Assembly: GCA_016180645.1 (NCBI GenBank)
Contig: JACPAV010000053.1
Location: forward strand, 1 to 35,430
Length of the DNA stretch: 35,430 bases
Source: Nitrospirota bacterium
Lineage (GTDB): Bacteria; JACPQY01
Reading direction: 5' to 3'
This document shows positions 2-19,674 of this stretch, one piece after another (within the stretch, counting starts at the first letter, position 1; every line of letters starts with the position of its first letter). Below the pieces are notes generated by a model. It was not told the DNA's origin and made no database searches. It saw nothing but the letters and a program-made list of their open reading frames with translations. Both the position numbers and the translations under genes were made by a program.

Positions 2-1330
2 GGCAACGTACTCGGTGTGTTCGCCGCGGCCCGCGACGTGACCGCGCAGAAGCAGGCTTCGCAGTACGCCCGCAGTCTCATCGAAGCGAGCCTCGACCCT
101 CTCGTGACGATCAGCCCGGAAGGCAAGATCACGGATGTGAACGAAGCCACCATCAAGATCACGGGCGTCCCGCGCGACAGATTGGTCGGAACCGACTTCT
201 CCAACTACTTCACGGAGCCTGAGAAGGCGCGCGAGGGCTATCAGCAGGTGTTCGCCAAGGGGTTCGTCACCAACTACCCTCTGACCATCCGTCAAAAGGA
301 CGGCCGTCTCACCGACGTCCTCTACAACGCGTCCGTTTACAAGGACGCGCGAGGCAACGTGCTCGGCGTCTTCGCGGCGGCCCGGGACGTCACCGAATCC
401 AAGCGGGTCATGAAGGAGTTTTCCGAAACGAAGAACCTCCTCGACAACATCCTGCAAAGCTCCATCAAGTACTCCATTATTGGAAAAGATCTCAACCACC
501 GCATCCTTTCATGGAACGAGGGGGCGCAGAGGAACTACGGCTATTCGGCGGATGAGATTCTCGGCAAGAACTCGGAGATTCTCCACGCGCCGGAGGACGT
601 CAAGTCCGGCGCCGTCAAACGCCTGCTGGATAACGCCTATGAGAAGGGTTTGGCCGAGGGAGAGTTCGAACGCGTCCGAAGGGACGGCGCCCGCTTCGCC
701 GCAAGCGTCGTCGTCACCCGCCGCAACGACGCGTCGGGCAATCCGGTCGGCTACCTGCTCATGTCGAGCGACATCTCGGAAAAGAGGAAGGCCGAGGCAC
801 AACTGCGCTTCGCCTCGCAGTATTCGAGGAGTCTCATTGAGGCCAGCCTGGACCCGCTCGTCACCATCAGTCCCGAAGGCAAGATCACGGATGTCAACGA
901 GGCCACCATCAAGATCACGGGCGTCCCCCGGGAGGAACTGATCGGGACGGACTTTTCCAACTATTTCACCGAACCCGAACGGGCCCGCGAGGGCTACCAG
1001 CAGGTGTTTGCCAAGGGCTCCGTCACCGACTACCCGCTCACGATCCGGCACAGGAATCACCGATTGACCGAAGTCTTGTACAACGCGTCGGTCTACAAGG
1101 ACGCGCAGGGCAACGTGCTCGGCGTGTTCGCCGCGGCCCGCGACGTGACCGTGCAGAAGAGGGCCGAGGTGGAGATCGCGGAACAGAGGGGCAAGGAACT
1201 GGAGCGCCTGGCGGAATTGGAGCGGTTTCAGAAGCTCACCGTGGGCCGCGAGCTCAAGATGATCGAGCTCAAGAAGGAGATCGAGGAACTGAAAAACAGG
1301 CCGGGGAGCCGGGGAGCGGCCGGAGCGTGA
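2..1330 (+). CDS. Multi-PAS sensor protein without kinase domain (5' end outside window)
   Basis: Frame is open from base 2 (GNVLGVFAAARDVT, the end of an upstream PAS copy). Two near-identical PAS/PAC modules (SLIEASLDPLVTISPEGKITDVN...AARDVT) flank a different PAS module. Ends in the helix ELERFQKLTVGRELKMIELKKEIEELK; no H-box or HATPase. Confidence 0.88.
   Translation, partial: GNVLGVFAAARDVTAQKQASQYARSLIEASLDPLVTISPEGKITDVNEATIKITGVPRDRLVGTDFSNYFTEPEKAREGYQQVFAKGFVTNYPLTIRQKDGRLTDVLYNASVYKDARGNVLGVFAAARDVTESKRVMKEFSETKNLLDNILQSSIKYSIIGKDLNHRILSWNEGAQRNYGYSADEILGKNSEILHAPEDVKSGAVKRLLDNAYEKGLAEGEFERVRRDGARFAASVVVTRRNDASGNPVGYLLMSSDISEKRKAEAQLRFASQYSRSLIEASLDPLVTISPEGKITDVNEATIKITGVPREELIGTDFSNYFTEPERAREGYQQVFAKGSVTDYPLTIRHRNHRLTEVLYNASVYKDAQGNVLGVFAAARDVTVQKRAEVEIAEQRGKELERLAELERFQKLTVGRELKMIELKKEIEELKNRPGSRGAAGA
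56..1150 (+). repeat. Intragenic duplication of a PAS module (56-394 and 812-1150)
   Basis: Two highly similar 113-codon segments exactly 756 nt apart; the tail of a third copy occupies bases 2-43. Confidence 0.9.
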
Positions 1331-2448
1331 GCGGAGACCGGGGGCAGGATGACGCGCGCAGCACGACGAGCGCCATTCTCAACATCCTGGAGGACGCCGC
1401 GGGTGAGAAGGCGCACGTTGAGGCCACGCAAAAAGCGGTCCTGAACATCCTCGAGGATTCCGCCGAGGAAAAGGCCCGCCTGGCGGACACGCACCGCGCG
1501 GCGCTCAACATCCTTGAAGATGCCGCGGGGGAAAGAGCGCGCGTGGAGGGGACGCAGAAGGCGGTCTTGAACATTCTGGATGACTTCGCCGAAGAGAAGG
1601 CCCGGCTCGCCGATACGCAGCGCGCGGCGCTCAACATTCTCGAGGACTTCGACATTGAGAAGAACAAGGTCGAGAGCGTCAACGTCGAGCTTCGAAACGA
1701 GATCGCCGAGCGCACTCGGGCGGAGGAGGCCCTGCGCATCGCCAACACCGCGGTCGAGAGGGCCAACAAAGAACTCGAAGCCTTCAGCTACTCCGTATCC
1801 CACGATCTGAGGGCTCCGCTCCGGCACGTGGACGGCTTCGTGAACCTCCTGACGAAAAGCGTGGCGCCGCAACTCGATGAGAAACACCGACGCTGGCTGG
1901 ACATGGTGTCCGAGTCCGCGAAGCAGATGGGCCGCTTGATCGACGACCTTCTGGTATTTTCGCGCATGGGCCGGTCGGAGCTGAAAACCGAACGGGTCGA
2001 TTCGGAACGCCTCGTCGGGGAAGTCGTCCGCGATCTGGGCGAGCAGGAGACCGGACGCTCGATCGAGTGGGAAATCGGCGCCCTGCCGCCGGTCCCCGGA
2101 GATCCTCCCATGTTGAGACTGGTCTGGGTCAATCTGATCTCCAACGCCTTGAAGTACACCCGGCCGAAATCGCCCGCCCGGATCGAAATCAGCTCCCGCG
2201 CGGAAGGCAGCGAGGTCATCTTTTGCGTCCGCGACAACGGGGTCGGCTTCGACATGCAGTATGTCCACCGGCTCTTCGGCGTTTTCCAGCGGCTGCACGG
2301 CGCGACGGAGTTCGAAGGAACCGGCATCGGCCTGGCGAACGTCCGCCGGATCGTGAGCCGCCACGGCGGGCGCACCTGGGCCGAATCCACCCCCGGCGAA
2401 GGGGCGATCTTCTATTTTTCACTTCCCAACGGAAAGGAAGGATCATGA
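1327..2448 (+). CDS. Cytoplasmic histidine kinase (Cph1-like HisKA/HATPase) with N-terminal 21-aa repeats
   Basis: H-box SHDLRAPLRH, N-box NLISNALKY, G1 DNGVGF, F-box LFGVFQRLH, G2 GTGIGL. GTGA overlap with the upstream stop. Confidence 0.93.
   Translation: MSGDRGQDDARSTTSAILNILEDAAGEKAHVEATQKAVLNILEDSAEEKARLADTHRAALNILEDAAGERARVEGTQKAVLNILDDFAEEKARLADTQRAALNILEDFDIEKNKVESVNVELRNEIAERTRAEEALRIANTAVERANKELEAFSYSVSHDLRAPLRHVDGFVNLLTKSVAPQLDEKHRRWLDMVSESAKQMGRLIDDLLVFSRMGRSELKTERVDSERLVGEVVRDLGEQETGRSIEWEIGALPPVPGDPPMLRLVWVNLISNALKYTRPKSPARIEISSRAEGSEVIFCVRDNGVGFDMQYVHRLFGVFQRLHGATEFEGTGIGLANVRRIVSRHGGRTWAESTPGEGAIFYFSLPNGKEGS
1372..1686 (+). repeat. Five tandem 63-nt (21-aa) repeats with core AxLNIL[E/D]D
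   Basis: AILNILEDAAGEKAHVEATQK / AVLNILEDSAEEKARLADTHR / AALNILEDAAGERARVEGTQK / AVLNILDDFAEEKARLADTQR / AALNILEDFDIEK. Alternate units match best, giving a 42-aa higher-order unit. Confidence 0.9.
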
Positions 2449-2900
2449 ACCAACTCAAACGGATTCTATTGGCTGAGGACAACCCGAAAGATGTTGAACT
2501 GACGCTGGCCGCGCTGGAAGAAAACCACCTTGCGAATGAAGTTCTGGTGGTGAACGACGGCGCGCAGGCATTGGACTTCCTGTATCGCCGCGGCGCTTTC
2601 AAGCTCCGCGCGCCGGAGAATCCCGCCGTGGTATTGCTGGATCTCAAAATGCCGAAGGTGGATGGCCTGGACGTGTTGCGGAAAGTGAAGGCGGATGACA
2701 CCCTCAAGATGATCCCCATCGTGATGCTTACGTCCTCGAGGGAGGAGAAGGACCTGGTGGAGAGCTACCAATTGGGCGTCAACGCCTATGTGGTCAAGCC
2801 GGTCGATTTCCAGCAATTCGTCGATGCCGTGAAACAGCTCGGAGTCTTTTGGGGACTCATCAATGAGCCACCCATCGGAAGCGTCCGGCGCGTGAGGTAG
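2445..2900 (+). CDS. Single-domain response regulator, Rcp1-like
   Basis: ATG at 2445 overlaps the kinase stop (ATGA) after GGAAAGGAAG. Motifs ILLAEDN, LLDLKMP, MLTSS, YVVKP and FW near the C-terminus. Confidence 0.93.
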   Translation: MNQLKRILLAEDNPKDVELTLAALEENHLANEVLVVNDGAQALDFLYRRGAFKLRAPENPAVVLLDLKMPKVDGLDVLRKVKADDTLKMIPIVMLTSSREEKDLVESYQLGVNAYVVKPVDFQQFVDAVKQLGVFWGLINEPPIGSVRRVR

Positions 2901-2902
2901 GT

Positions 2903-4465
2903 ATGGCTGCGGGGGGAGCAGCGTTGAAGATCCTCCACCTGGAGGACAACCCCGGCGACGCGGAGTTGGTGCGCGCATTTCTTCACGAGGACGGCATCGT
3001 GTGCGAAATCATTCGCGTGGAGTCCTTGACCGAATTCGAGAAGATTCTTCGAGAGAATGGCGTGGATCTGATCGTCTCGGATTTCACGCTTCCGACGACG
3101 GACGGCCTGTCCGCCCTCTCCGTGGCGCGCAAGGTGCGGCCCGAAGTGCCGTTCATTTTCCTTTCCGGAACCATCGGTGAGGAACGGGCGGCGGAGGCGG
3201 TCCGAATGGGCGCGACAGACTACATCCTCAAGGATCGGCCGCTCCGATTGGTCACCGCCGTGCGAAGGGCCCTCCGGGAATCGAAGGAAAACAAGAGGAG
3301 CGGGAGCCTGGAGGCCCAACTCCGGCTTTCCCAGCGGATGGAGGTGGTGGGCCGACTCGCGGGCGGCGTGGCGCACGATTTCAACAATTTGCTGACCGTC
3401 ATATCGGGTCGTTCCGAGATCGTTTTCAGCGAACTGGGGCCGACGCATCCGTGCTCCGAAGATCTCTCCGAGGTCCTGGAGGCGGCATCCAGGGCCGCGA
3501 GTTTGACTCGACAACTCCTCGCCTTCAGCCGTCAGCAGGTTCTCCAACCGAGAATTCTGGACCTGAATGCGTTGATCCGCGACCTGACCCGGATGCTCCG
3601 CCGGCTGATCGGGGAGGACCTCGAACTCACGACGCACCTGGCTCCCGGCGTCCTACCCGTGAAGGCGGACCCCGGGCAGTTGGAACAGGTCATCATGAAT
3701 CTGGCGGTCAACGCCCGGGACGCCATGCCGGATGGCGGGCGGTTGTCCGTCGAGACGCTCATCGAAGACCTGGGGGAAGAGTACGCCCGCCGCAATCTGG
3801 ACATGAAGCCGGGACGATACGTGAGCCTGTCCATCGGCGACACCGGGGAGGGGATAGCCGCGGAGAATCTCCCTTTCATCTTCGAGCCGTTCTTCACGAC
3901 GAAGGAGCCGGGGAAGGGCACGGGACTCGGCTTGGCGATGGTCTATGGGATCGTCAAACAAAGCGGCGGCCACATCAACGTCTCGAGCGAACCGGGGCGA
4001 GGGAGTCTTTTCCGCATTCATCTTCCCGGCATCGAGGAGGCCCCTGAGGAAGTTCAACCTGCGGGCGGCGCGCGTTCAGTTCCGGGAGGGTCCGAGACGG
4101 TTTTGCTGGTGGAGGACGACGAAATGGTCCGCGCCGTGACGGCGCGGATGCTGCGGAAGATCGGGTATGTCGTCCTGGAGGCGCCGCATCCGATGCTGGC
4201 GCTCCAAGCCGCGGAAAATCACCCAGGTGATATTCATCTTGTTGTATCCGACATTGTCATGCCGGTGATTGACGGCTGGGAATTTGTGCGCCGGCTGCGG
4301 GTGGCCCGTCCCCTGGTGAAAGCCCTCATGATGTCCGGCTACCCGGGTCGTGGCTTTCCATCCGCCCAGATGGATTTTCCCAGCGTGGTCTATCTCCCCA
4401 AGCCGTTTTCGGCCGAAGTGCTGGCGGTGAAGGTCAGAGAGGCCCTGGACGGAAATAATAGGTGA
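2903..4465 (+). CDS. Hybrid histidine kinase REC-HisKA-HATPase-REC
   Basis: N-terminal REC (LEDN, SDFTLP), H-box [29 protein letters not shown]-terminal REC (VEDD, SDIVMP, KPF). Confidence 0.93.
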
Positions 4466-4514
4466 CAGTATACTCTATTAAGGCTTGCAACGGCAATAAT
4501 AGTATACTGTCACC
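4461..4514. repeat. AT-rich 14-bp inverted repeat between convergent genes (possible bidirectional terminator or REP-like element)
   Basis: GGTGACAGTATACT (4461-4474) and AGTATACTGTCACC (4501-4514). The left arm supplies the TGA stop of the hybrid kinase. Confidence 0.7.
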
Positions 4515-4520
4515 GATTAT

Positions 4521-5192
4521 TCACGCGCCGGCGAGGGCTTGGCGCATTTTCTTGATCGTGTCCTTGTATGGCTTATTCTTGAAGACGCCGGCGCCTGAGA
4601 CGAAGACATTTGCCCCGGCGGAAGCCACTTGGGCGATGTTCTCCAGCTTCACGCCGCCGTCCACCTCAATGTCGAGGGCGGGATTCCGCTTGTCGGCGAT
4701 TTCCCGGAGCCGCTGGATCTTCGGCAATACGGCCGAGATGAACGCCTGACCGTAGAATCCTGGATTCACGCTCATCATGTTCACAAGATCGATGTCCGGC
4801 AGGATCTCGGAAACGGCCTCAATGGGGGTCGCGGGGTTGACGGCCACGCCGGCCTTCGCGCCGAGTTTCTTGATCTCCTGAATCAGCCGGTGGAGATGGG
4901 TCACGGCTTCGACGTGAACCGTGAGGATGGCCGCTCCCGCCTGGATGTAGTCCTTGAAAGAAACCTCGGCGTTGCTGATCATAAGGTGGACGTCGAGGGG
5001 AAGGGCGGTCGCCTTCTTAATGAAGGCCGTAATCTCCGGCCCCAGGGTCAAATTGGGTACGAAGTGGCCGTCCATGACGTCGACGTGGATGTAGTCCGCC
5101 CCGCCTTCCGAGACTTCCCGGATTTCATCTCCGAGATGGAGATAGTCGGCGGCGATCAGGGAGGGAGAGATCTTCCAGTTGTTCTTAGTCAT
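4521..5192 (-). CDS. rpe: Ribulose-phosphate 3-epimerase
   Basis: HVDVMDGHFVPNLT, DVHLM, MSVNPGF and EVDGG motifs. Confidence 0.97.
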   Translation of the reverse strand: MTKNNWKISPSLIAADYLHLGDEIREVSEGGADYIHVDVMDGHFVPNLTLGPEITAFIKKATALPLDVHLMISNAEVSFKDYIQAGAAILTVHVEAVTHLHRLIQEIKKLGAKAGVAVNPATPIEAVSEILPDIDLVNMMSVNPGFYGQAFISAVLPKIQRLREIADKRNPALDIEVDGGVKLENIAQVASAGANVFVSGAGVFKNKPYKDTIKKMRQALAGA

Positions 5193-9356: not shown

Positions 9357-11234
9357 TTAACTCCCGACGGCGAGCACGTCACTCAGGAGGTTCATGAGGC
9401 AGAGGCCCGGAGGGCCGCTGAGTTTTTGAAGCTCAGGTTTGACGCCGCAAGGAACGGTCGAACCTTGCGGGAGCGTCACGCCGTACTTCTTCCAATCCAG
9501 CGCAGTAGGATCCACAAGCACGGCGCCGCCGAATCCGGGGTCCTGCCACAGAAAATGAACGTAGGCGGATTTCTTTCCGTCCTTGGGAACGCCGTCGCCC
9601 CATGCGGTGGAGAAATCGGGATCATCGATGGAGATCCCGCCGATGTCGTAGATACCCACTCCCAACTGATCCATGGGCCATTCTTGAAAATGAGTGGAGT
9701 CCGTAAGGGGCCGCCCGGGCTCGCAGGAAAGCTTGAGGGTATTTTGAGGCGCTTTGACACCGCATTCGAATTCCTCGAGGAAGTAGCCATCGGTAGAGCC
9801 GATGGCCCGAGTCCAGGCGGGGAGATAATTCCTGGCATTCTCGAGGGATTTGAAGAGCTGGTGCATGTCCAGGTAGAAGACGCTTCGATTGATTCCGAGT
9901 TGAACGCCGGCGACGAATTGGACCATGTCGCCGACCGTGTCCAAGAGGTTGGTCACGGCGGCCTGGGTGACGTTCGCGGCGGCTCCCGTGTCGGAGGTCA
10001 GCGACGAGAGCACGGCCTGTGTCGCAATCGAATTGAACCCGGCGGACACGTTGTTGAGAAGGGGACCGAAGACATCGGCCGCATTGACGTATGGGTATTG
10101 CTTCGGGTTCGTCAAGTGAAGCCTGAGATTCTCCGTGGATCGGGCGGCGGTGGGCGAGGGTTCGACCTTTCCCAGACGGTAGACGCCGCTGCTGGACGAG
10201 GAAGACCCCGTGCTGCGGACATTCATGTAGTTTTCGGCATCGAGGAACGCCATGAAGGAATCGGAATAGTGCCCTGGGTTGTCCACGGGGACCGTTTCGT
10301 TGATGCTGCTCGAGAGCAGGTAGGCGAACAGGAGGTCCCTGGCCTGCGACAGGTGCTCGGGGAAGAAGGTGAGAAACGTGGGATCGCTGTTCAGCAGGCG
10401 GGTTGTCTGCTTGGCGCCTTCTCCTTCAAAGAAGTTCTCCAGGAGCTCGCTCATGTCGAGGCCGGCGGTCATCTGCTTGATCAGGTTTACGGAGTTGAGG
10501 CGGAGAGAGATAACCGCGTCAGAGGCCATCCCTATCAAGTAGAGCAGGTCCCGCAGATAAAGAGCCACCGCCTTGTTGTGGTAGCCGACAAACTCGCCCG
10601 CGGCGCTGACCCCGGCCGCGGAGAATCCCAGAGTGACGCTCTTGGCGGGGAAGACAAAATCCTCGCTATGGAGGACCGATTCCAGCTTCGGGATGCTCCG
10701 GGCGACGGCATTCAGGAGATAGACGTTGAACAGGTCTTCGAGCACGCCGTGGGAGATCTCCCCTGCGGCGTGGCGGCGGGCGCCCACGGGAAACGGCGGG
10801 GCGAACATCGGGGATGACGGAGGAGCGGCGAGTATCGCGTCCCTCGGCGGCGCGCCCTCCATGCCGAAAAGTTTCAGCATCGCGCTGGTCAGTTCGTTCA
10901 GGTCTTGGAGCGTGATAAGAAAGTCGGTGGCGAATTCCCCGTACGTAGCCGCGCCGGGGTCCACATTTGGATCATTCTGGGCTCCCCTGAAATACTCGCG
11001 TGCTTTTTCCCATCCGGCCCGGTCCGGCTGGGAGAGCAGATCGGCGTAGCCGATGAAGGTCTTGGGAAAAGTGTGGGCATGATCCCCCGTCTGGATCGTT
11101 ACATTCGGGTTGGGGGGCTCAATCGGTTTCACGACTTTCTCCTCGGCGATGAAGGTGGCGGTGCCGCAGGAGGAAGTGAAGAGTGAAAAGAGAAGAGTGA
11201 AAAGAATGGGGAGGGCAAAGGATCTTCGCGCCAT
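9357..11234 (-). CDS. Hypothetical lipoprotein (about 625 aa)
   Basis: Long ORF. ATG at 11234 gives MARRSFALPILFTLLFSLFTSSC (signal peptide plus lipobox). Stop lies 2 nt from the ddpX start. No family recognised. Confidence 0.75.
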   Translation of the reverse strand: MARRSFALPILFTLLFSLFTSSCGTATFIAEEKVVKPIEPPNPNVTIQTGDHAHTFPKTFIGYADLLSQPDRAGWEKAREYFRGAQNDPNVDPGAATYGEFATDFLITLQDLNELTSAMLKLFGMEGAPPRDAILAAPPSSPMFAPPFPVGARRHAAGEISHGVLEDLFNVYLLNAVARSIPKLESVLHSEDFVFPAKSVTLGFSAAGVSAAGEFVGYHNKAVALYLRDLLYLIGMASDAVISLRLNSVNLIKQMTAGLDMSELLENFFEGEGAKQTTRLLNSDPTFLTFFPEHLSQARDLLFAYLLSSSINETVPVDNPGHYSDSFMAFLDAENYMNVRSTGSSSSSSGVYRLGKVEPSPTAARSTENLRLHLTNPKQYPYVNAADVFGPLLNNVSAGFNSIATQAVLSSLTSDTGAAANVTQAAVTNLLDTVGDMVQFVAGVQLGINRSVFYLDMHQLFKSLENARNYLPAWTRAIGSTDGYFLEEFECGVKAPQNTLKLSCEPGRPLTDSTHFQEWPMDQLGVGIYDIGGISIDDPDFSTAWGDGVPKDGKKSAYVHFLWQDPGFGGAVLVDPTALDWKKYGVTLPQGSTVPCGVKPELQKLSGPPGLCLMNLLSDVLAVGS

Positions 11235-11296
11235 GGGAAGAGTCCGTTGACCGAATGTACGGCCGGACAGGGCCTCCATGGATCTGGAGATTGGGG

Positions 11297-13108
11297 TCAT
11301 GGCTCGAGTTTGAGAGTGAGGTCGAGCGTGCCCCGGAGGACGGGGTTTTGCTTGCCGTCGGTTTTCTCGCGTACGGAGGCGTAGGTCCAATTGTGGAGTT
11401 CTTCGAGGGTCAGGAGGCGGTCTTCGTTCAGGTCGGCCTTGCCGTCCATCGCCTCCAGCAGGGCGGAAGTGTAGATCCCGTGTTTCAGCTTGGGGTCCTC
11501 GCGCGCCACTTCGAGCGGTCCGGCGGAGCTCATTACGGCGCGGCCCCTTGCATCCGACAGTCGATTGAGGAACTTGTCCGAGAGCTTCCCGACGGCCTTG
11601 GAAATCGTCCGACCGCCGCCGCCCGAGTAGCAGGTGTCGAGGATGAACAGGATGTTCTTTGCCCGGATGCGTTCAAAAAGCGTGCGGAGTTCCTCCATGG
11701 GAAGAGCGGTGGAATAGAGGGAACCCGGACGCGTATCGTAGACGGCGAGGTATTTTGAAAACCCATCCCCGTCCGGTGAGGCGGCATCCTTTTCGGTCGC
11801 GCCGTGTCCCGCGAAATAGACCAGGACGTCGTCATTCGGCGTGGCCCGCTGCTTGAGTTCGGTTCCCAAGACCTCCCTCACGCGTTCCAAGGTCGCCTCC
11901 TCGTTGGCGATGACGAAGGAGTTGGAGGAACCGACGAGGCCTTTTTGTGTCATCAGTTCGTGAAGGGCGCCGGCGTCTTCGGCCGCGAACCCGGTGGGCG
12001 GCAGCGAGGCGTACTGGGAAATGCCGATGAAGACGGCGAAGACCTGCGGTGGGGAGGTCGAGCGTTCGACATGGACGAGCCGCTCAATGGAACCGGTTCG
12101 CCCCTGCGCCCGCACGCGGAGGACGTTCAGCCCCGCGGCCAGTTTGACGGCCGCGTTGAACGCGTAGTCGCGTTGGAGGACTTTCGGCTCGTAATCGAGC
12201 TCCTTCTTGCCGTTGACGATCACCACGAGCCGGCGGAGTCCGACGGGGTCGTTGACGAGGCCGGAAAGTTCGATCACTTCATCGTCGACTTGGATGAATT
12301 CCTCGTTCGGTTTGAGCACCGTCAGCGTGGGCCCGGGCGTCAGACCGGTGCTCACGGCAAAGGTCGTGTAGGTTTTCTCGTTGGCCGGATAGACCAGCCG
12401 TGCGGGAGTCGGTTTATCCGGACTGAGGTACGGCTCGAGATCGTGAATGGGAATTTCCACGACGCCTTCCAGATCGGTCGACATCGGAACCGCCTGGTCG
12501 CCCGCCTGGGTTTTCAAACGGATTTCGACGGGTGTAAGGGTGGCGGCCGAAACCGATTCCACCACGCTACGGTCGGAATCCTCGATATAGGTCCACTTGG
12601 GTTTCAACTTCCTGCCGTGCCCGAACAGGCGGAACGCGAGGGTTCCGCCGAATACGGCGTCGCTGGCGAAAAGCGCGGTGGAGCCCCAGGTGCGGAGATC
12701 GGACCGGCCGTTGCGTATGCCCTGGCTCATCAAGTAGGCGCCGCCTCCAAGCGCGGCGGCCCACGCGGTCCCGGCCGCAATCCAGCCCGCCGTGGTCATT
12801 TGGATGCGCGGCTCGATTTCCTCCTCGTAGCCGACGCGCTTGAGATTGTAGCGTTGGAGCTTGTAGCGGAAGATGGGATCGCTCGATGTCGGCGCGGAAA
12901 CCATCTCAAAGGCCGTATGCGTTGTGGCGCGACCGAGGTCGAGAGGGCGAATGGCGCCGGTCGAATCCGCCTTCAGGTGGACGCAAGAGAGGGCCGCGAC
13001 CCCCACGCCGGCCACAAGGGCTATGCGCCCGAACGCGCGACCGATCAAAGCCCGAGTCGTTTTTCGATGGAACCCTTGAGGGTTTGCCCCGGACCCGACG
13101 CGGGACAT
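11297..13108 (-). CDS. Caspase-family (peptidase C14) protein with lipoprotein-like N-terminus and Ig-like domain
   Basis: Dyad motifs YFAGHG and LDTCYSG, plus VFIGISQY, HGIYT and QNP. Ig-like segment VKLAAGLNVLRVRA. The true start may be TTG at 13048, overlapping the upstream stop (TTGA). Confidence 0.88.
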   Translation of the reverse strand: MSRVGSGANPQGFHRKTTRALIGRAFGRIALVAGVGVAALSCVHLKADSTGAIRPLDLGRATTHTAFEMVSAPTSSDPIFRYKLQRYNLKRVGYEEEIEPRIQMTTAGWIAAGTAWAAALGGGAYLMSQGIRNGRSDLRTWGSTALFASDAVFGGTLAFRLFGHGRKLKPKWTYIEDSDRSVVESVSAATLTPVEIRLKTQAGDQAVPMSTDLEGVVEIPIHDLEPYLSPDKPTPARLVYPANEKTYTTFAVSTGLTPGPTLTVLKPNEEFIQVDDEVIELSGLVNDPVGLRRLVVIVNGKKELDYEPKVLQRDYAFNAAVKLAAGLNVLRVRAQGRTGSIERLVHVERSTSPPQVFAVFIGISQYASLPPTGFAAEDAGALHELMTQKGLVGSSNSFVIANEEATLERVREVLGTELKQRATPNDDVLVYFAGHGATEKDAASPDGDGFSKYLAVYDTRPGSLYSTALPMEELRTLFERIRAKNILFILDTCYSGGGGRTISKAVGKLSDKFLNRLSDARGRAVMSSAGPLEVAREDPKLKHGIYTSALLEAMDGKADLNEDRLLTLEELHNWTYASVREKTDGKQNPVLRGTLDLTLKLEP

Positions 13109-13875
13109 GCCTTGAGCAGATCGAGAGCCGCTTCCAGGCGGGATTCCCTGACAAAGTAAGAGACGCCGGTCTTGCAGAGAGCCTCTTTCTGCGTGGGTGT
13201 GGCGTTTTCCACCGCCTGGCGGATCATGCCGAGGCTTTTCACATCCTCCTGGCTCACAACCCGGAAACAGGCGGTTTCCAAAGATTCCCCCTTGGAACCG
13301 GTGAGTTCCCAGCAGTAACTCTTCCCGGCCTCGAGAGGTTCCGACCCTGAGGGATAGCCAAGTTCTGTCCCCGCCACCGGAGTGTCCCAGAGGATTCCCT
13401 TATGGTCAGGTTTGTTCAGGACGACTTTTCCCACCGTTTTTTCCCGCCACCGGAATGAGGGAGTGGCTTGTTCCACGGCGATGGACACGGGATAGGCGAG
13501 CCGCGTAAGGAGGCCGCCGGAGCGAAAATAGGCTCCTCCTGTGGCCGTGGCCGTCTCCTTGGAGAACACCTTGGCCAGACCTTTCTCGGCCACTTTGCTC
13601 TCCTCGGCCTTCAGCGTGCCATCGACCTTCCATCCGTTTTGCTCGGTGAGAACCAGGCTGCCGGCTCCCTTGAACGTGACGAAGCGGTCGGGTGAGAAGA
13701 AGATCGTCGCCTCCCCGCCCTTGAACTCCAAGGTGTCCTTCGCCTTCAGTTCGGACATGACTTCCGGGGGGGTCTTTTTTCCGGCGCGGACAAGGGTGAC
13801 CTGTGCCGGGTCGGCCGAGACCAAGCTGCTCCACTGAACGAGCGATAGAAAGACCGCCATGTTACATAGAATCAT
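13045..13875 (-). CDS. Secreted DUF928-like protein
   Basis: N-terminal signal-like segment; TPSFRW...LGYPSGSEPLEAGKSYCWEL resembles DUF928/FN3-like segments; helical C-terminus. ATGA overlap with the cyclase stop. Confidence 0.55.
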   Translation of the reverse strand: MILCNMAVFLSLVQWSSLVSADPAQVTLVRAGKKTPPEVMSELKAKDTLEFKGGEATIFFSPDRFVTFKGAGSLVLTEQNGWKVDGTLKAEESKVAEKGLAKVFSKETATATGGAYFRSGGLLTRLAYPVSIAVEQATPSFRWREKTVGKVVLNKPDHKGILWDTPVAGTELGYPSGSEPLEAGKSYCWELTGSKGESLETACFRVVSQEDVKSLGMIRQAVENATPTQKEALCKTGVSYFVRESRLEAALDLLKACPASGPGQTLKGSIEKRLGL

Positions 13876-15620
13876 ATTTTACCTCGCGTAATCGGCTTGA
13901 TCTTGACGATGGCAACGGCTTTCCCTTTTCCCTTAACGTGGACTTCGCTTGTCTCAATATACTCATACATTTGGGCAGTTGCCTGTGTGGCCGATAGTAG
14001 CACATTCTCGGTGGCTACCAAACCTTTGTCGTCCGAATAGGATTCGATTCGGAAGGCCGTGTTGACGGTGTCGCCGATCACGGTGAAATCGCTCTTGAAC
14101 CGACTGCCGATCCGGCCGATGACGAGGGGACCCTTCGAGACGGCCACGTGGATGCTGACTTTTCTTTTTTCCGCTTCTTCCCACAGACCGAGGGCGGCCT
14201 TGAGGGCGGCCGATGCGCCGTTGTCGCTCGCCTGCACCGGCACGCCGAAGACCGCGAGGATGGCGTCTCCCGGAAAGCTCAGGACGAGTCCGTCTTCACG
14301 GCGGATGATGTCCGTCGTCCACTCGAAGTACTCGTTCAGCATGGCCACCAGATCCCGTGGGTCCATCCACTCGGAGATGGTGGTGAATCCTTTGAGGTCG
14401 GTGACGAGGATGCAGGCTTCGACCATCTTTCCCGATTCATCGATCTCGTCCTCGTGGTCCAGGATGGACGCGAGCACGAGGGGATTGACGTAGCGGCCGA
14501 ACGCTTTCTCGAGGGTCCGTTTCTTGCGATCGAGGAACCAGAATCGGACGCCGGTCGCGACGGCGGTTTGAACCATCCAGGGAATGAGGATGGGGAGAAC
14601 CGGAAGCCCGATGTTGTGGCGCAGCGCGACATAGGCTGCGGCAAAATAGAGGGGGCAGAGCATGGCGAGGGCCAGGGCGAGGCGACCGATGGACTCTCTG
14701 GCGGCAAGGAGAAGAACAAACGCCCCGAAGAGCAGGCCGGCCGCCACCGGGAGTGGGGGCGCGTCACGGATGAACCGACCGCCCGACAAGCTGCCGAAAG
14801 TCGTAGCGTGAACCTCGAGACCGGCAAAGAGGTCTTTGGGATCGTTGTGCAGGAGATTGAAGGGTGTGGTGAACAAGTCCGAGAGGAAATCCGGCGAGGG
14901 TCCGACGAAAACAACTCGGGCCTTCACGTCCATCCCCGGCTGGTTTTGAATGACCGTCAGTATGGAACCGGACGGAATCGAGCCTTTGGGCTGGAATCCG
15001 AGTCGGATCTTTTTGGGGAAAGCGGCGGAGAATTCCTGGGAGGAAAGCCGGTTCAGAGCGGCGTGGGCCGCGGCGGCCAGCGAGAGGTGCGCCCCATCGT
15101 CCGTCTTGACGTAGGTTTCCTGGTGGCGAATCACGCCGTCTTTCGAGGGGCTCAGGTTGAAGAATCCCGCGGCAGCGGCCGCCTGGCGAAGAAGCGGGTA
15201 GGGATACTTGATCCCGCCGCTGGGGGCGATTTCGGAGGCGATGATGATGGGGACGCCCCGGGCCGCTGCCCGCATGAGGGCGCCGGCGAGGGGCAGAGTG
15301 GATGCCGCGGCCGAATCCGTCGGAAGGAAAAGGAAGTCGAACACAATGGCCCGAGCTCCTCCGGAGATCAATCGGTCGACCAGTTCCGCCATCGGCCCAT
15401 ACCAGGCGGAGAGGGGTACGCCGTAGTGGCGGTAGGTATTCTCATCCAAGTACAAAAGGATCTCACTGCTTTCCGGATTGTTGCGCCCCCGTAGGCACAT
15501 CAGCAGATCGCGGCTCTTTTCGTCCAACCAACTCAGGCTGGGCTGGGAGAACAGGAGAAATAAGACCGGCGAGACGAGGGCGGAGAGCGCGAGGAGCCAG
15601 ATCCGAGAAAATGTAATCAT
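13872..15620 (-). CDS. CHASE2-domain class III nucleotidyl (adenylate/guanylate) cyclase
   Basis: N-terminal TM; CHASE2 motifs (GARAIVFDFLF, DGVIR, GLEVHA); three TMs; FGRYV linker; catalytic TDLKGFT, GDA and GDTVNTAFRIE. Confidence 0.92.
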   Translation of the reverse strand: MITFSRIWLLALSALVSPVLFLLFSQPSLSWLDEKSRDLLMCLRGRNNPESSEILLYLDENTYRHYGVPLSAWYGPMAELVDRLISGGARAIVFDFLFLPTDSAAASTLPLAGALMRAAARGVPIIIASEIAPSGGIKYPYPLLRQAAAAAGFFNLSPSKDGVIRHQETYVKTDDGAHLSLAAAAHAALNRLSSQEFSAAFPKKIRLGFQPKGSIPSGSILTVIQNQPGMDVKARVVFVGPSPDFLSDLFTTPFNLLHNDPKDLFAGLEVHATTFGSLSGGRFIRDAPPLPVAAGLLFGAFVLLLAARESIGRLALALAMLCPLYFAAAYVALRHNIGLPVLPILIPWMVQTAVATGVRFWFLDRKKRTLEKAFGRYVNPLVLASILDHEDEIDESGKMVEACILVTDLKGFTTISEWMDPRDLVAMLNEYFEWTTDIIRREDGLVLSFPGDAILAVFGVPVQASDNGASAALKAALGLWEEAEKRKVSIHVAVSKGPLVIGRIGSRFKSDFTVIGDTVNTAFRIESYSDDKGLVATENVLLSATQATAQMYEYIETSEVHVKGKGKAVAIVKIKPITRGKI

Positions 15621-16815: not shown

Positions 16816-19674
16816 GTGATGCGCAAGCGACGTGCCGCCCTGCTTCTCTCCGTGCTCCTTTGGCCCTGCGGGGTTCATGCCCAGGCGAAATGGAATCCTG
16901 ACTTGATCTGGAGAACGACGGAGACGGAACACTTCGCCATTCATTTTGATTCCACCTTGGAACCCTTGATTCCGCGCGTGGCGGAGGTGGCCGAAGAGGT
17001 TCACCGGGAGCTTTCGCCGAGGATCGGATGGCTTCCGCGGACGAAAACCCATCTCGTTATGGCGAACCGGTCGGATGACGTGCAGGGTCTGGCCACCCCT
17101 GCCCCCTACAACCTGATCGTCCTCAATGCGGCGCCGCCTCTGACCGAGGAGATGATGCTCGATTTCACGGATTGGTTTCGCGATCTGATCGGACACGAGT
17201 ACACCCACATTCTCCATACGGACAAAGTGAGCGGGGTGGGGAAGGGGCTGAGGGCCGTATTCGGAGGGGCGTGGGTGCCCAACGGATTGGCGCCCCAATG
17301 GGTGACGGAGGGCTATGCGACGCTGGAGGAAAGTACGCTGACCTCCGGCGGACGGACGCATTCGGCCTACACCGACATGGTGGTGCGCACCGCCGTGCTG
17401 TACGGGCGGTTTCCAAGCCTGGACCAGGTGAATGGCGGCTTGCTGGAAGGGATGGGCGGGAATGCGGCCTACCTGTTCGGCGCCCGGTTCCAGGAGTACT
17501 TACGAAATCAGTACGGGGCGGAGGGATTCAAGGTCTTTACGGATAGTCAAGGTGGACGAATAGTCCCGTATTTCACCGTTGGGCTGTCGGGGCAAGCCGC
17601 TTATGGGAAATCCCTTAAAGCCCTCTGGTCCGAGTGGAAGGAACGGACCCACGCCGAGGTGGATGAATGGCGGGAGGCCCGTCGCCGGGAGGGTCTGGTG
17701 GAAGGGGAGGCGGTGGTGAAAGGCCGGGAACCCGTGCTTCGAATGGCCCACGAGGCCGTTGCCGACCGGCTATTGTTCTGGACGCGGAGCCTCGATCGTT
17801 CCCCGCGATTGGTGGAGTGGAGCCTGGAGGAGCGGGACATCGTGAGCGACTTTACGGCGACGGCGCTGACGCTCCATCCGTTGAAACCGTTGGCTGTGTA
17901 TGCCGCCTCCGCCAGCGTGGGGCCGTTCGAAACGATGTCCGATCTGTTCCAAGTGGACGTCGAGTCGGGTTCCACCCGCCGACTGTCCCGAGGGAAACGG
18001 CTCCTGTTCCCGGCATTCGATCCGACCGGTGAGATCCTGGTGGCCGTGCAGTTCGAGGGTTCCCGACACCGGCTGGTGAACTTCCGCCCATCAGACAAGA
18101 ATGTCCAGCCCCTCGATGCTCAACCATCGGCGAAACACCTCGGCGCATTGGCTGTTTCGCCGGACAACCGCACCCTGGCTGTGTCGGTGTGGCGGGAGAA
18201 GAGGGGTACGGAGGGATCGTGGGACATCCTTCTCCTCGATCGGCAGGGTGGGTTCCTCCAGGCCATCACGGATGATCGCGCCGTGGACTACAATCCATCG
18301 TTCTCGTCCGACGGCGAGTGGGTGTTGTTCGATTCGGACCGCTCAGGCGCTTTCAATGTTCTTTCGTGGAATCGGACGACCGGAGAGATCCGACAAGCAA
18401 CAAACGTCGAAACCGGGGCGTTCCAGCCGGTGGTTTCGGGTGACAAGGTCTACTACCGTCGATATCAACCGGAAGGTTTCGATGTGTACGCTGCTACGTG
18501 GGATCCGGCGAGTTGGCCGGTGGTTCAGTCCCCTCACCCTAGCCATCTCCCGCCGGCGGGAGAGGGGGGTGATACGGAACGTTCCGACGGTGATCGCGAA
18601 CAGAATCATCGACAGGCTCCCGTGTCACGCCCCTATTCGGCCTTCCCGGACCTTTTGATTCCCCGCCTGTGGAGTCCGATCTTCTTCTTCAACGACCGCG
18701 GAGTCGCCCAGTATGGCGTGGCCACTTTCAACCTCGATCCTTTGTTCCAGCATGTGTGGTACGTGGAGGCGGACTACCGCCCGGACGCGGCCACCTCGGA
18801 AGGCGAGGCGTTCTATCAGAACGACACACAGTTTCCGTCGATCTTTGTTTCGGGAAGACGACGGGTCTTCTCGGTGGGACCGCTCGACAGCGATTTCTAC
18901 CAGCGATCGAATCGCGCCGAAGCCGGCATGAGTTTCCCGGACGTGAAATACGGCGCGCTCGCCTCGTACACGCTTGAGGACCGGATGAACTTTGGAAGCG
19001 ATGCGGATCCCGAACTCCTCTTCCCCGGTCGGTTCGCCGGTGTGAGGACGGGCCTGGGATACGACTCGACGAAAGCGCATCGATATTCCATCAGCCCGGA
19101 GAAGGGGATCCGGTTCTCATCCTCCTGGGAAATTCTCCATAATCTCTTCGGAAGCGAATTCGACCAGCAGGTTCTTCGCGGCGACGCGCGATGGTACCGG
19201 CGCGTGCCCCTATTGCCCCGCCACGCCGTGGCCCTACGGGGGGCGGCGGGGGCTGCGGTAGGCGAAGCCACTCGCGGCGCCTTTGCGTTGGGCGGTTTCG
19301 TCGGCGAGAGTCCGATTGTGCTCGTGCCTGAGCGGACCTTCATGCTCCGGGGATACGATTTCAACGCCTACCGGGGGAGGCGATTTGTGCTCGGCAGCGC
19401 CGAGTATCGTTTTCCGTTGGCCAAGGTCGAGCGGGGAGTCGGAATCTATCCGTTGTTCCTCCAACAAGTTCACGGGCTGATGTTCGCCGACGTCGGGCAG
19501 GCATGGAACCGCGCGTTCGATGCCCCGCGCACGGGAGTGGGCGTGGGCGGGGAAATCGTTTTCAACTCCGTGCTGTTTTACGGCCTACCGGCGGATATTC
19601 ATCTGGGGGTCGGCCGGGGGCTCACCGATCAAGGCGCGACGACCGTCATCTTTCGGATCGGTCCGAGCTTCTAG
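16816..19674 (+). CDS. Omp85/BamA-TamA family outer membrane protein with N-terminal zinc peptidase-like and PD40 propeller domains
   Basis: Signal peptide; HEYTH plus WVTEGYA (gluzincin-like); PD40-like repeats (PSFSSDGEWVLFDSDRSG); barrel motifs LRGY and EYRFPL; terminal Phe. Confidence 0.85.
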   Translation: MMRKRRAALLLSVLLWPCGVHAQAKWNPDLIWRTTETEHFAIHFDSTLEPLIPRVAEVAEEVHRELSPRIGWLPRTKTHLVMANRSDDVQGLATPAPYNLIVLNAAPPLTEEMMLDFTDWFRDLIGHEYTHILHTDKVSGVGKGLRAVFGGAWVPNGLAPQWVTEGYATLEESTLTSGGRTHSAYTDMVVRTAVLYGRFPSLDQVNGGLLEGMGGNAAYLFGARFQEYLRNQYGAEGFKVFTDSQGGRIVPYFTVGLSGQAAYGKSLKALWSEWKERTHAEVDEWREARRREGLVEGEAVVKGREPVLRMAHEAVADRLLFWTRSLDRSPRLVEWSLEERDIVSDFTATALTLHPLKPLAVYAASASVGPFETMSDLFQVDVESGSTRRLSRGKRLLFPAFDPTGEILVAVQFEGSRHRLVNFRPSDKNVQPLDAQPSAKHLGALAVSPDNRTLAVSVWREKRGTEGSWDILLLDRQGGFLQAITDDRAVDYNPSFSSDGEWVLFDSDRSGAFNVLSWNRTTGEIRQATNVETGAFQPVVSGDKVYYRRYQPEGFDVYAATWDPASWPVVQSPHPSHLPPAGEGGDTERSDGDREQNHRQAPVSRPYSAFPDLLIPRLWSPIFFFNDRGVAQYGVATFNLDPLFQHVWYVEADYRPDAATSEGEAFYQNDTQFPSIFVSGRRRVFSVGPLDSDFYQRSNRAEAGMSFPDVKYGALASYTLEDRMNFGSDADPELLFPGRFAGVRTGLGYDSTKAHRYSISPEKGIRFSSSWEILHNLFGSEFDQQVLRGDARWYRRVPLLPRHAVALRGAAGAAVGEATRGAFALGGFVGESPIVLVPERTFMLRGYDFNAYRGRRFVLGSAEYRFPLAKVERGVGIYPLFLQQVHGLMFADVGQAWNRAFDAPRTGVGVGGEIVFNSVLFYGLPADIHLGVGRGLTDQGATTVIFRIGPSF
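18530..18567. repeat. Palindromic element in-frame within the Omp85 gene
   Basis: CCCCTCACCCTAGCCATCTCCCGCCGGCGGGAGAGGGG resembles the common CCCTCACCC...CTCTCCC...GGGAGAGGG intergenic repeat; translates as PHPSHLPPAGEG. Confidence 0.65.

Follow-up and report, generated by a model that had tools for sequence, protein, structure and literature searches.

The DNA examined here, a 35,430-nucleotide stretch from a Nitrospirota bacterium (GTDB lineage JACPQY01; assembly GCA_016180645.1, contig JACPAV010000053.1) referred to below as the window, begins with two genes that probably encode the halves of one sensor kinase, natively split and not by accident. The first encodes a multi-PAS sensor protein without an output domain and the second a histidine kinase without a sensor domain. 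With a small response regulator they make up a widespread three-gene operon in which sensor and kinase are cut at the same point of the connector and both cut ends are constrained, the sensor end as a conserved tail helix and the kinase end as an array of 21-residue repeats bearing the motif LNILED. We infer both the contact between tail and array and the direction of regulation: the tail helix of the sensor probably docks on the LNILED stalk of the kinase, so that a cognate pair of helices would hold together a sensor kinase whose split is conserved, a reading to which we assign a probability of about 60%. The features concerned are these, with DHp standing for the dimerization and histidine-phosphotransfer domain and AF2 for AlphaFold2:

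2..1330, + strand: 3' part of the output-less multi-PAS sensor gene (442 codons plus stop; 5' end open at the contig edge)
1154..1294, + strand: conserved C-terminal tail helix (sensor residues 385-431; GRELKMIELK at 1244-1273)
1295..1330, + strand: variable sensor end, predicted disordered (AF2; mean identity 0.17), and TGA stop
1327..1330, + strand: GTGA start/stop overlap (kinase GTG at 1327, sensor TGA at 1328-1330)
1327..2448, + strand: soluble histidine kinase of 373 amino acids, without sensor or transmembrane domain
1363..1677, + strand: array of five xLNILED repeats, 21 residues each (kinase residues 13-117), within a longer helix predicted to be unbroken
1678..1971, + strand: connecting helix and DHp (HisKA, residues 151-215; codon of the phospho-acceptor His159 at 1801-1803)
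2098..2430, + strand: HATPase_c catalytic domain (residues 258-368)
2451..2900, + strand: single-domain response regulator of 149 amino acids (Response_reg), third gene of the conserved operon

The sensor and kinase proteins

Contig C16 of a 65-contig, 4.7-Mb assembly begins with the window, and the first 157 codons of the sensor gene are found at the end of contig C46 (1..471) in that assembly, overlapping the first residues of the window. Since near-identical PAS repeats stand at the break and the sensor N terminus is found on C46, the assembly broke inside the PAS repeats. Pfam matches three PAS stretches in the protein of the window but no output domain. The AF2 model (predicted local distance difference test, pLDDT, 87.9) shows three PAS folds, then one terminal helix of 50 residues (383-432), followed by disorder. 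The C terminus reads ELERFQKLTVGRELKMIELKKEIEELKNRPGSRGAAGA up to the stop codon, with GRELKMIELK 18 residues before it; the end of the protein as quoted in an earlier reading of this DNA, made from the sequence only, is present as a string, but 15 more residues precede the stop. The tail comprises 47 residues and is nearly invariant across phyla, with ten residues invariant among 67 sequences, including G415, R416, E417, M420, L423, and K424.

Next to the tail, the last PAS domain is without cysteine and is ~75% identical across phyla and domains, the kinase being 37% identical. Only PAS families were met in the sensor, with neither a heme H-NOX nor a NosP sensor domain among them, and a Foldseek search with the sensor model gave generic multi-PAS matches only, including the FixL, LOV-HK, DosP, and PpsR folds, which do not indicate a ligand. 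Contig depth in sequencing run X2 was 558-818 over positions 1002-1154 vs. ~42 elsewhere, so this PAS domain may be shared by many other organisms in those samples. No membrane-spanning hydrophobic stretch was found in either the sensor or the kinase.

Pfam matches in the kinase are confined to HisKA (1.6e-12, residues 151-215) and HATPase_c (2.1e-25, residues 258-368), the latter an alpha/beta fold in the AF2 model, and residues 1-150 had no match in Pfam or NCBIfam. The marks of the histidine kinase class, namely an H-box DHp, a GHKL-type ATP-binding domain, and a receiver gene, are all present. Because the highest Kyte-Doolittle 19-mer reaches only 0.76, the kinase is taken to have no transmembrane helix. 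LNILED or LNILDD occurs at residues 18, 39, 60, 81, and 102, a spacing of exactly 21, and Tandem Repeats Finder reported periods of 63 and 126 nucleotides at 1378-1637; across loci, the repeat consensus is TQRAvLNILEDFxxEKxRLEx. The AF2 model of the kinase (pLDDT 88.7, from an alignment of 69 relatives) has one unbroken helix over residues 16-178, so that the repeats are predicted to extend the first DHp helix directly. Open reading frames (ORFs), Pfam matches, and AF2 models together bear out the arrangement described by the sequence-only reading: a PAS gene without an output domain, coupled through GTGA to a kinase that lacks sensor and transmembrane domains and whose five 21-residue repeats lead into the DHp.

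The spacing between array and active site follows a heptad register. In the window, His159 (in SHDL) lies 56 residues, or eight heptads, after the asparagine of the last repeat. Among 100 HisKA kinases, this asparagine-to-histidine distance was a multiple of seven in 87 and spanned 28 to 77, with 56 residues, as in the window, in 40 cases; off-register distances were 7n+4 in 11 and 7n+3 in two. In HisKA_2 kinases, the distance was a multiple of seven in 11 of 16. Judged by residue spacing, the array is mechanically in phase with the DHp, as would be expected if it carried a signal into that domain.

Tail and array adjoin across phyla

Loci in other genomes were collected from both sides of the split. 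A tail search over one genome per species gave at least 601 pattern matches and 167 confirmed loci, and an array search, for which segments of two repeats were aligned, gave 298 matches, with 242 loci confirmed; the best 80 loci of each were examined. The two sets comprise 139 distinct records, 19 of them shared, under ~21 phylum labels, and five of the records are archaeal. Cultured strains with the two genes include Duganella violaceipulchra HSC-15S17 and Ramlibacter albus GTP1.

In the tail set, the strict motif was present in 79 of 80 loci, one locus having two sites, and the ORF stopped 10-28 residues past the motif. A separate gene that starts with two or more LNILED motifs spaced 21 residues apart adjoined 68 of the 80 tail sites, its first repeat 41-215 nucleotides 3' of the sensor stop, and inspection of four further sites revealed arrays that were degenerate or cut by the contig end. 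Starting from the array, the strict tail was found in a separate upstream ORF at 73 of 80 loci and a tail with one-residue variants at two more, while upstream sequence was too short to judge at three. The sequence-only reading had stated that the two motifs often occur together; the association is far stronger than that, covering 72 of 80 tail sites and 75 of the 77 evaluable array loci under the ~21 phylum labels, and instead of motifs distributed independently across genomes, we found an adjacency that holds in both directions. A smaller, earlier array set had the tail gene upstream in five of five cases, and a search with a single kinase N-terminal query returned six loci. At array locus L118 (1030..2298), the PAS gene before an intact five-repeat kinase stops early, within the last PAS domain, and so lacks the tail; this gene is likely a decayed sensor half.

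Tail and array were found in one ORF at none of the 160 loci. A phmmer search of 1.84 billion representative proteins with the last 62 sensor residues returned 911 matches at E <= 0.001, 80 of them at E <= 1e-10. Among the best 150 matches, 137 contained the strict decamer and 124 of those 137 ended no more than 36 residues later; same-chain run-on into LNILED repeats was limited to three of the 137 (P0070, P0142, and P0146). Among genomes near that of the window (60 other genomes; only one of the same family was found), no ortholog for direct comparison was found, and the 43 matches in those 60 genomes fell mostly on the DHp-proximal part of the query (the window's own gene aside).

Conservation of the cut ends and a proposed docking model

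Mean pairwise identity was 0.75 in the last PAS domain and 0.78 in the tail, dropped to 0.17 in the last residues of the sensor and 0.19 in the leader of the kinase, and was 0.52 for the two DHp-proximal repeats, 0.37 for the DHp, and 0.38 for the catalytic domain. The value for the tail is inflated, as these loci were selected by the tail, but the set selected by the repeats still had the strict decamer in 73 of 77 loci. By pairwise identity, then, each protein is best conserved at the end that faces its partner across the split, whereas the residues at the split itself vary and are predicted to be disordered. Along the array, conservation showed no clear gradient by repeat position once the two proximal units, found in every array, are set aside.

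In the docking model, the tail helices of a sensor dimer would settle on the stalk that the LNILED repeats form in a kinase dimer, giving a heteromeric helical bundle, which would rebuild the PAS-to-DHp helical connector non-covalently. Ligand-driven changes in the PAS domains could then reach the DHp via the rigid repeat stalk, and the resulting change in the DHp would alter autophosphorylation and phosphotransfer to the receiver. Such docking fits the strong conservation of both ends, the presence of the array before outputs other than HisKA, and the existence of rare natural fusions.

Tail and array might instead never touch, each being a homodimerizing coiled coil, with the sensor acting through other surfaces (its PAS domains on the DHp or the catalytic domain) or on another target altogether. 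Both segments are indeed predicted as plain long helices, and the heptad register between array and DHp is what an ordinary dimeric stalk would have. Other observations weigh against docking in general, and two of them, the missing co-phylogeny signal and the fused array without a tail, count for this alternative too. Distances between sensors (PAS plus tail) and distances between kinase cores are uncorrelated (Mantel r 0.10, with 276 of 2000 permutations as high), so there is no co-phylogeny signal; the tail is also too invariant for covariation to be read. The kinase at L159 and the protein P0005 carry the array right after PAS and have no tail, which means that the array can work tail-free when fused. 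Six of the 80 tail sites were without an adjoining array gene, and two Bdellovibrionales loci (L032 and L037) pair the tail gene with a 597-residue PAS protein that has no N-terminal array. In these two (~3177..4970), the genes overlap by ATGA and a lone LNILED-like motif lies ~280 residues into that PAS protein, which may make them a rearranged variant of the pair. As to sampling, the 80 loci examined out of 167 in the tail set and the 80 out of 242 in the array set were picked by likeness to the window, and most records are metagenome bins in which single taxon labels may be wrong; several records are on contigs of 0.5 to 7.5 Mb.

Two separate homodimers, the main alternative, nonetheless seem less likely to us. 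A generic helix would not be expected to hold ~78% identity and ten invariant residues over ~20 phyla when the kinase core is at 37%, and tail and array track each other almost one-to-one in both directions, also before different output classes. We therefore retain docking of the tail on the LNILED stalk as the probable reading.

The history of the operon appears to have been a mobile one. In a FastTree phylogeny of 66 kinases, from which three rows of <250 amino acids had been dropped, phyla were mixed (34 label changes, vs. a minimum of 17 and a shuffled mean of 43.8), and starred sister groups spanned phyla and even domains. This pattern fits frequent operon transfer, subject to the caveat already given for metagenome bins.

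Output classes, repeat number, and the number of sensors

Downstream of the sensor, the partner is usually a compact kinase. Complete downstream proteins were 274-471 amino acids long, and among 69 of them HATPase_c was found in 64, HisKA in 57, HisKA_2 or HWE_HK in 11, and PAS in only two. Upstream proteins matched mostly PAS families (PAS_9 in 64 of 67), none of the 25 families listed was an output domain, and the third gene encoded Response_reg at 58 of 67 related loci. Outside kinases, a GAF/HD-GYP protein (P0002) has the array, and its 7174-base contig (L128) has a tail gene upstream. In longer array proteins, the repeats were at the very N terminus in nine of 11 inspected. A broader proposition, which we put somewhat short of an even chance, is that tail and array act as a portable, sequence-specific helical plug and socket, by which a near-invariant, horizontally mobile PAS cassette would be wired in trans to HisKA, HisKA_2/HWE, and GAF/HD-GYP outputs in Bacteria and Archaea, with repeat number setting valency or reach.

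Repeat number per kinase ranged from two to nine (two in 16, three in 21, four in 17, five in 12, six in two, and nine in one; n = 69). This variation speaks for the idea, already raised in the sequence-only reading, that an expanded array offers several docking sites, one per repeat or pair of repeats, through which a single kinase would combine the input of several tail-bearing sensors. The idea is compatible with docking of tail on array, and an array of the minimal two repeats (42 residues) comes close to the tail (47 residues) in length. Some genomes also hold more tail genes than array kinases. Of five genomes in which a tail gene has no array beside it, four encode an array at another site, and in at least two cases a complete pair stands under the same record label as the orphan tail (CALFNB, L059 with L085; JBDTWH, L102 with L101). 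In one record (L095), two tail genes (335..428 and 3103..3196) lie 2.7 kb apart, neither beside an array, with the array on another contig. Set against these extra unpaired tails, five of five other genomes had exactly one tail site and one array gene, adjoining each other, and the genome of the window likewise had one of each with the queries used. The proposal of several sensors per kinase therefore fares weakly at best, and we consider it improbable.

A native split, not a broken gene

The window itself offers some reason to suspect a broken gene. A perfect 8-bp tandem, GCCGGGGA (2.2 copies at 1300-1317), lies shortly 5' of the sensor stop in the variable end of the sensor, and losing one copy would put sensor and kinase in one frame. 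In favor of recoding, the kinase is in the -1 frame relative to the sensor, as in most pairs, and three fused proteins were found among the 150 best database matches. A programmed frameshift or stop read-through yielding a fused PAS-kinase protein is, all the same, highly improbable. Over 69 pairs, the frame of the kinase was -1 in 49, 0 in 12, and +1 in eight, and no single mechanism covers three frames. An NTGA start/stop overlap was present in 37 of the 69 pairs (window included), and the remaining kinases had their own ATG or GTG 2 to ~50 nucleotides past the sensor stop, so that each has a start codon at or just past the stop; the excess of -1 frames arises because a 4-nucleotide NTGA overlap alone sets the second gene in -1.

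A private frameshift, pseudogene, or assembly error, in which the 8-bp duplication split one gene, is scarcely credible, given that a split at the same place is the rule at the 160 loci from other genomes, that the overlap type and tail length in the window are typical of the pairs, and that region 1238-1400 was free of indels and length variants in contigs from four groundwater runs of one study (three possibly a source of the window DNA, the fourth from a sample not flagged as such). A frameshifted single gene, which the sequence-only reading had named as a way for its proposal to fail, was thus not found, and both a broken single gene and programmed recoding, which would entail a shared frame and no start for the kinase, were rejected on the absence of fused loci, the three frames, and the separate starts.

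Neighboring genes

Further genes in the window include the following:

2903..4465, + strand: hybrid REC-HisKA-HATPase_c-REC kinase of 520 amino acids
11297..13108, - strand: 603-residue protein with a C-terminal caspase (Peptidase_C14) domain, by Pfam
13872..15620, - strand: protein with CHASE2 and adenylate/guanylate cyclase domains, by Pfam

The hybrid kinase directly follows the response regulator of the operon and is probably the next relay step. The caspase-domain and cyclase proteins belong to a four-gene run on the - strand (9357..15620), which also contains ORFs of 276 and 677 amino acids, neither with a Pfam match; the run may be a signaling or conflict cluster. Separately, an ORF of 952 amino acids (16816..19674, + strand) had no Pfam match at E <= 1e-8 and no relative among the genome contigs searched.

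Relation to known systems and significance

The closest parallels in organization are the H-NOX/HnoK and NosP/NahK pairs, in which a separate soluble sensor is encoded beside a sensor-less kinase and controls it in trans (PMC4436077). As in those pairs, the sensor studied here is a separate, output-less polypeptide whose gene adjoins the kinase gene, and the kinase core matches the NCBIfam model near_NosP_CTERM, although below its cut-off. Unlike in the H-NOX and NosP pairs, the sensor is multi-PAS, not heme, and both partners have conserved helical end modules. We know of no such end modules described for H-NOX/HnoK or NosP/NahK.

The order of elements, with PAS, a long helix, and the DHp in heptad register, is that of FixL, the Brucella LOV-HK (6ph4), and YF1-type kinases. 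Where those fused kinases run from PAS through a coiled coil to the DHp in one polypeptide, the chain here is broken inside the connector at 160 of 160 loci, and the connector consists of two distinct modules. Docking domains of polyketide synthases (PKS) and nonribosomal peptide synthetases (NRPS) likewise join separate polypeptides through the C-terminal and N-terminal helices of consecutive subunits (PMC9113145). They resemble tail and array in position and helicity, but this is an analogy only, as they belong to another enzyme class, no sequence relation is claimed, and binding of tail to array is a proposal. MopJ of Caulobacter is an output-less, single-domain PAS protein that acts on separate histidine kinases (PMC4432633, PMC4620464); it differs in having a single PAS domain, and the abstracts of those papers indicate no conserved tail, repeat partner, or operon link.

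Among NCBIfam models, the best match of the kinase core was LvrA of Leptospira, at 222 bits with a cut-off of 1200. The hybrid kinase at 2903..4465 matched LvrB at 231 bits (cut-off 500), its best matches being CckA models, also below cut-off. As in the Cph1/Rcp1-type (COG4251-like) arrangement, a small stand-alone receiver comes after the kinase. What sets the system apart from Cph1/Rcp1 and LvrA/LvrB is the lack of a phytochrome or GAF photosensor, together with an N-terminal array and a split PAS partner that are foreign to those families.

Neither the tail nor the LNILED motif has a Pfam or NCBIfam model. Sequence searches of the PDB with the array and with the tail-bearing protein returned weak PAS matches (3ewk, 3lyx) and chance matches only, and the ESM Atlas returned scores of at most 0.90 and unnamed clusters only. 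No paper naming either motif or the pair was found in a literature search that covered subscription journals thinly, so that an earlier description is possible.

The passage of signals from PAS domains to kinases through the helical connector is still debated. To our knowledge, the connector has been studied almost only in fused proteins, where cutting it destroys the protein. Here, considerably more than a hundred genomes have it naturally cut, always at one position, with both ends strongly constrained. The identity of the sensor domain, ~75% from Acidobacteriota to methanogen-related Archaea with the kinase at 37%, points to a universal input. If the two ends dock, the pair would make signal transmission in trans open to study in a system that nature already supplies and would be a candidate orthogonal connector for synthetic sensor kinases, and a function would be at hand for two widespread motifs that family databases leave unnamed. 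Should the plug-and-socket reading also prove true, signal transduction would have a natural docking-domain system of its own in tail and array, similar to the one known from polyketide synthases.

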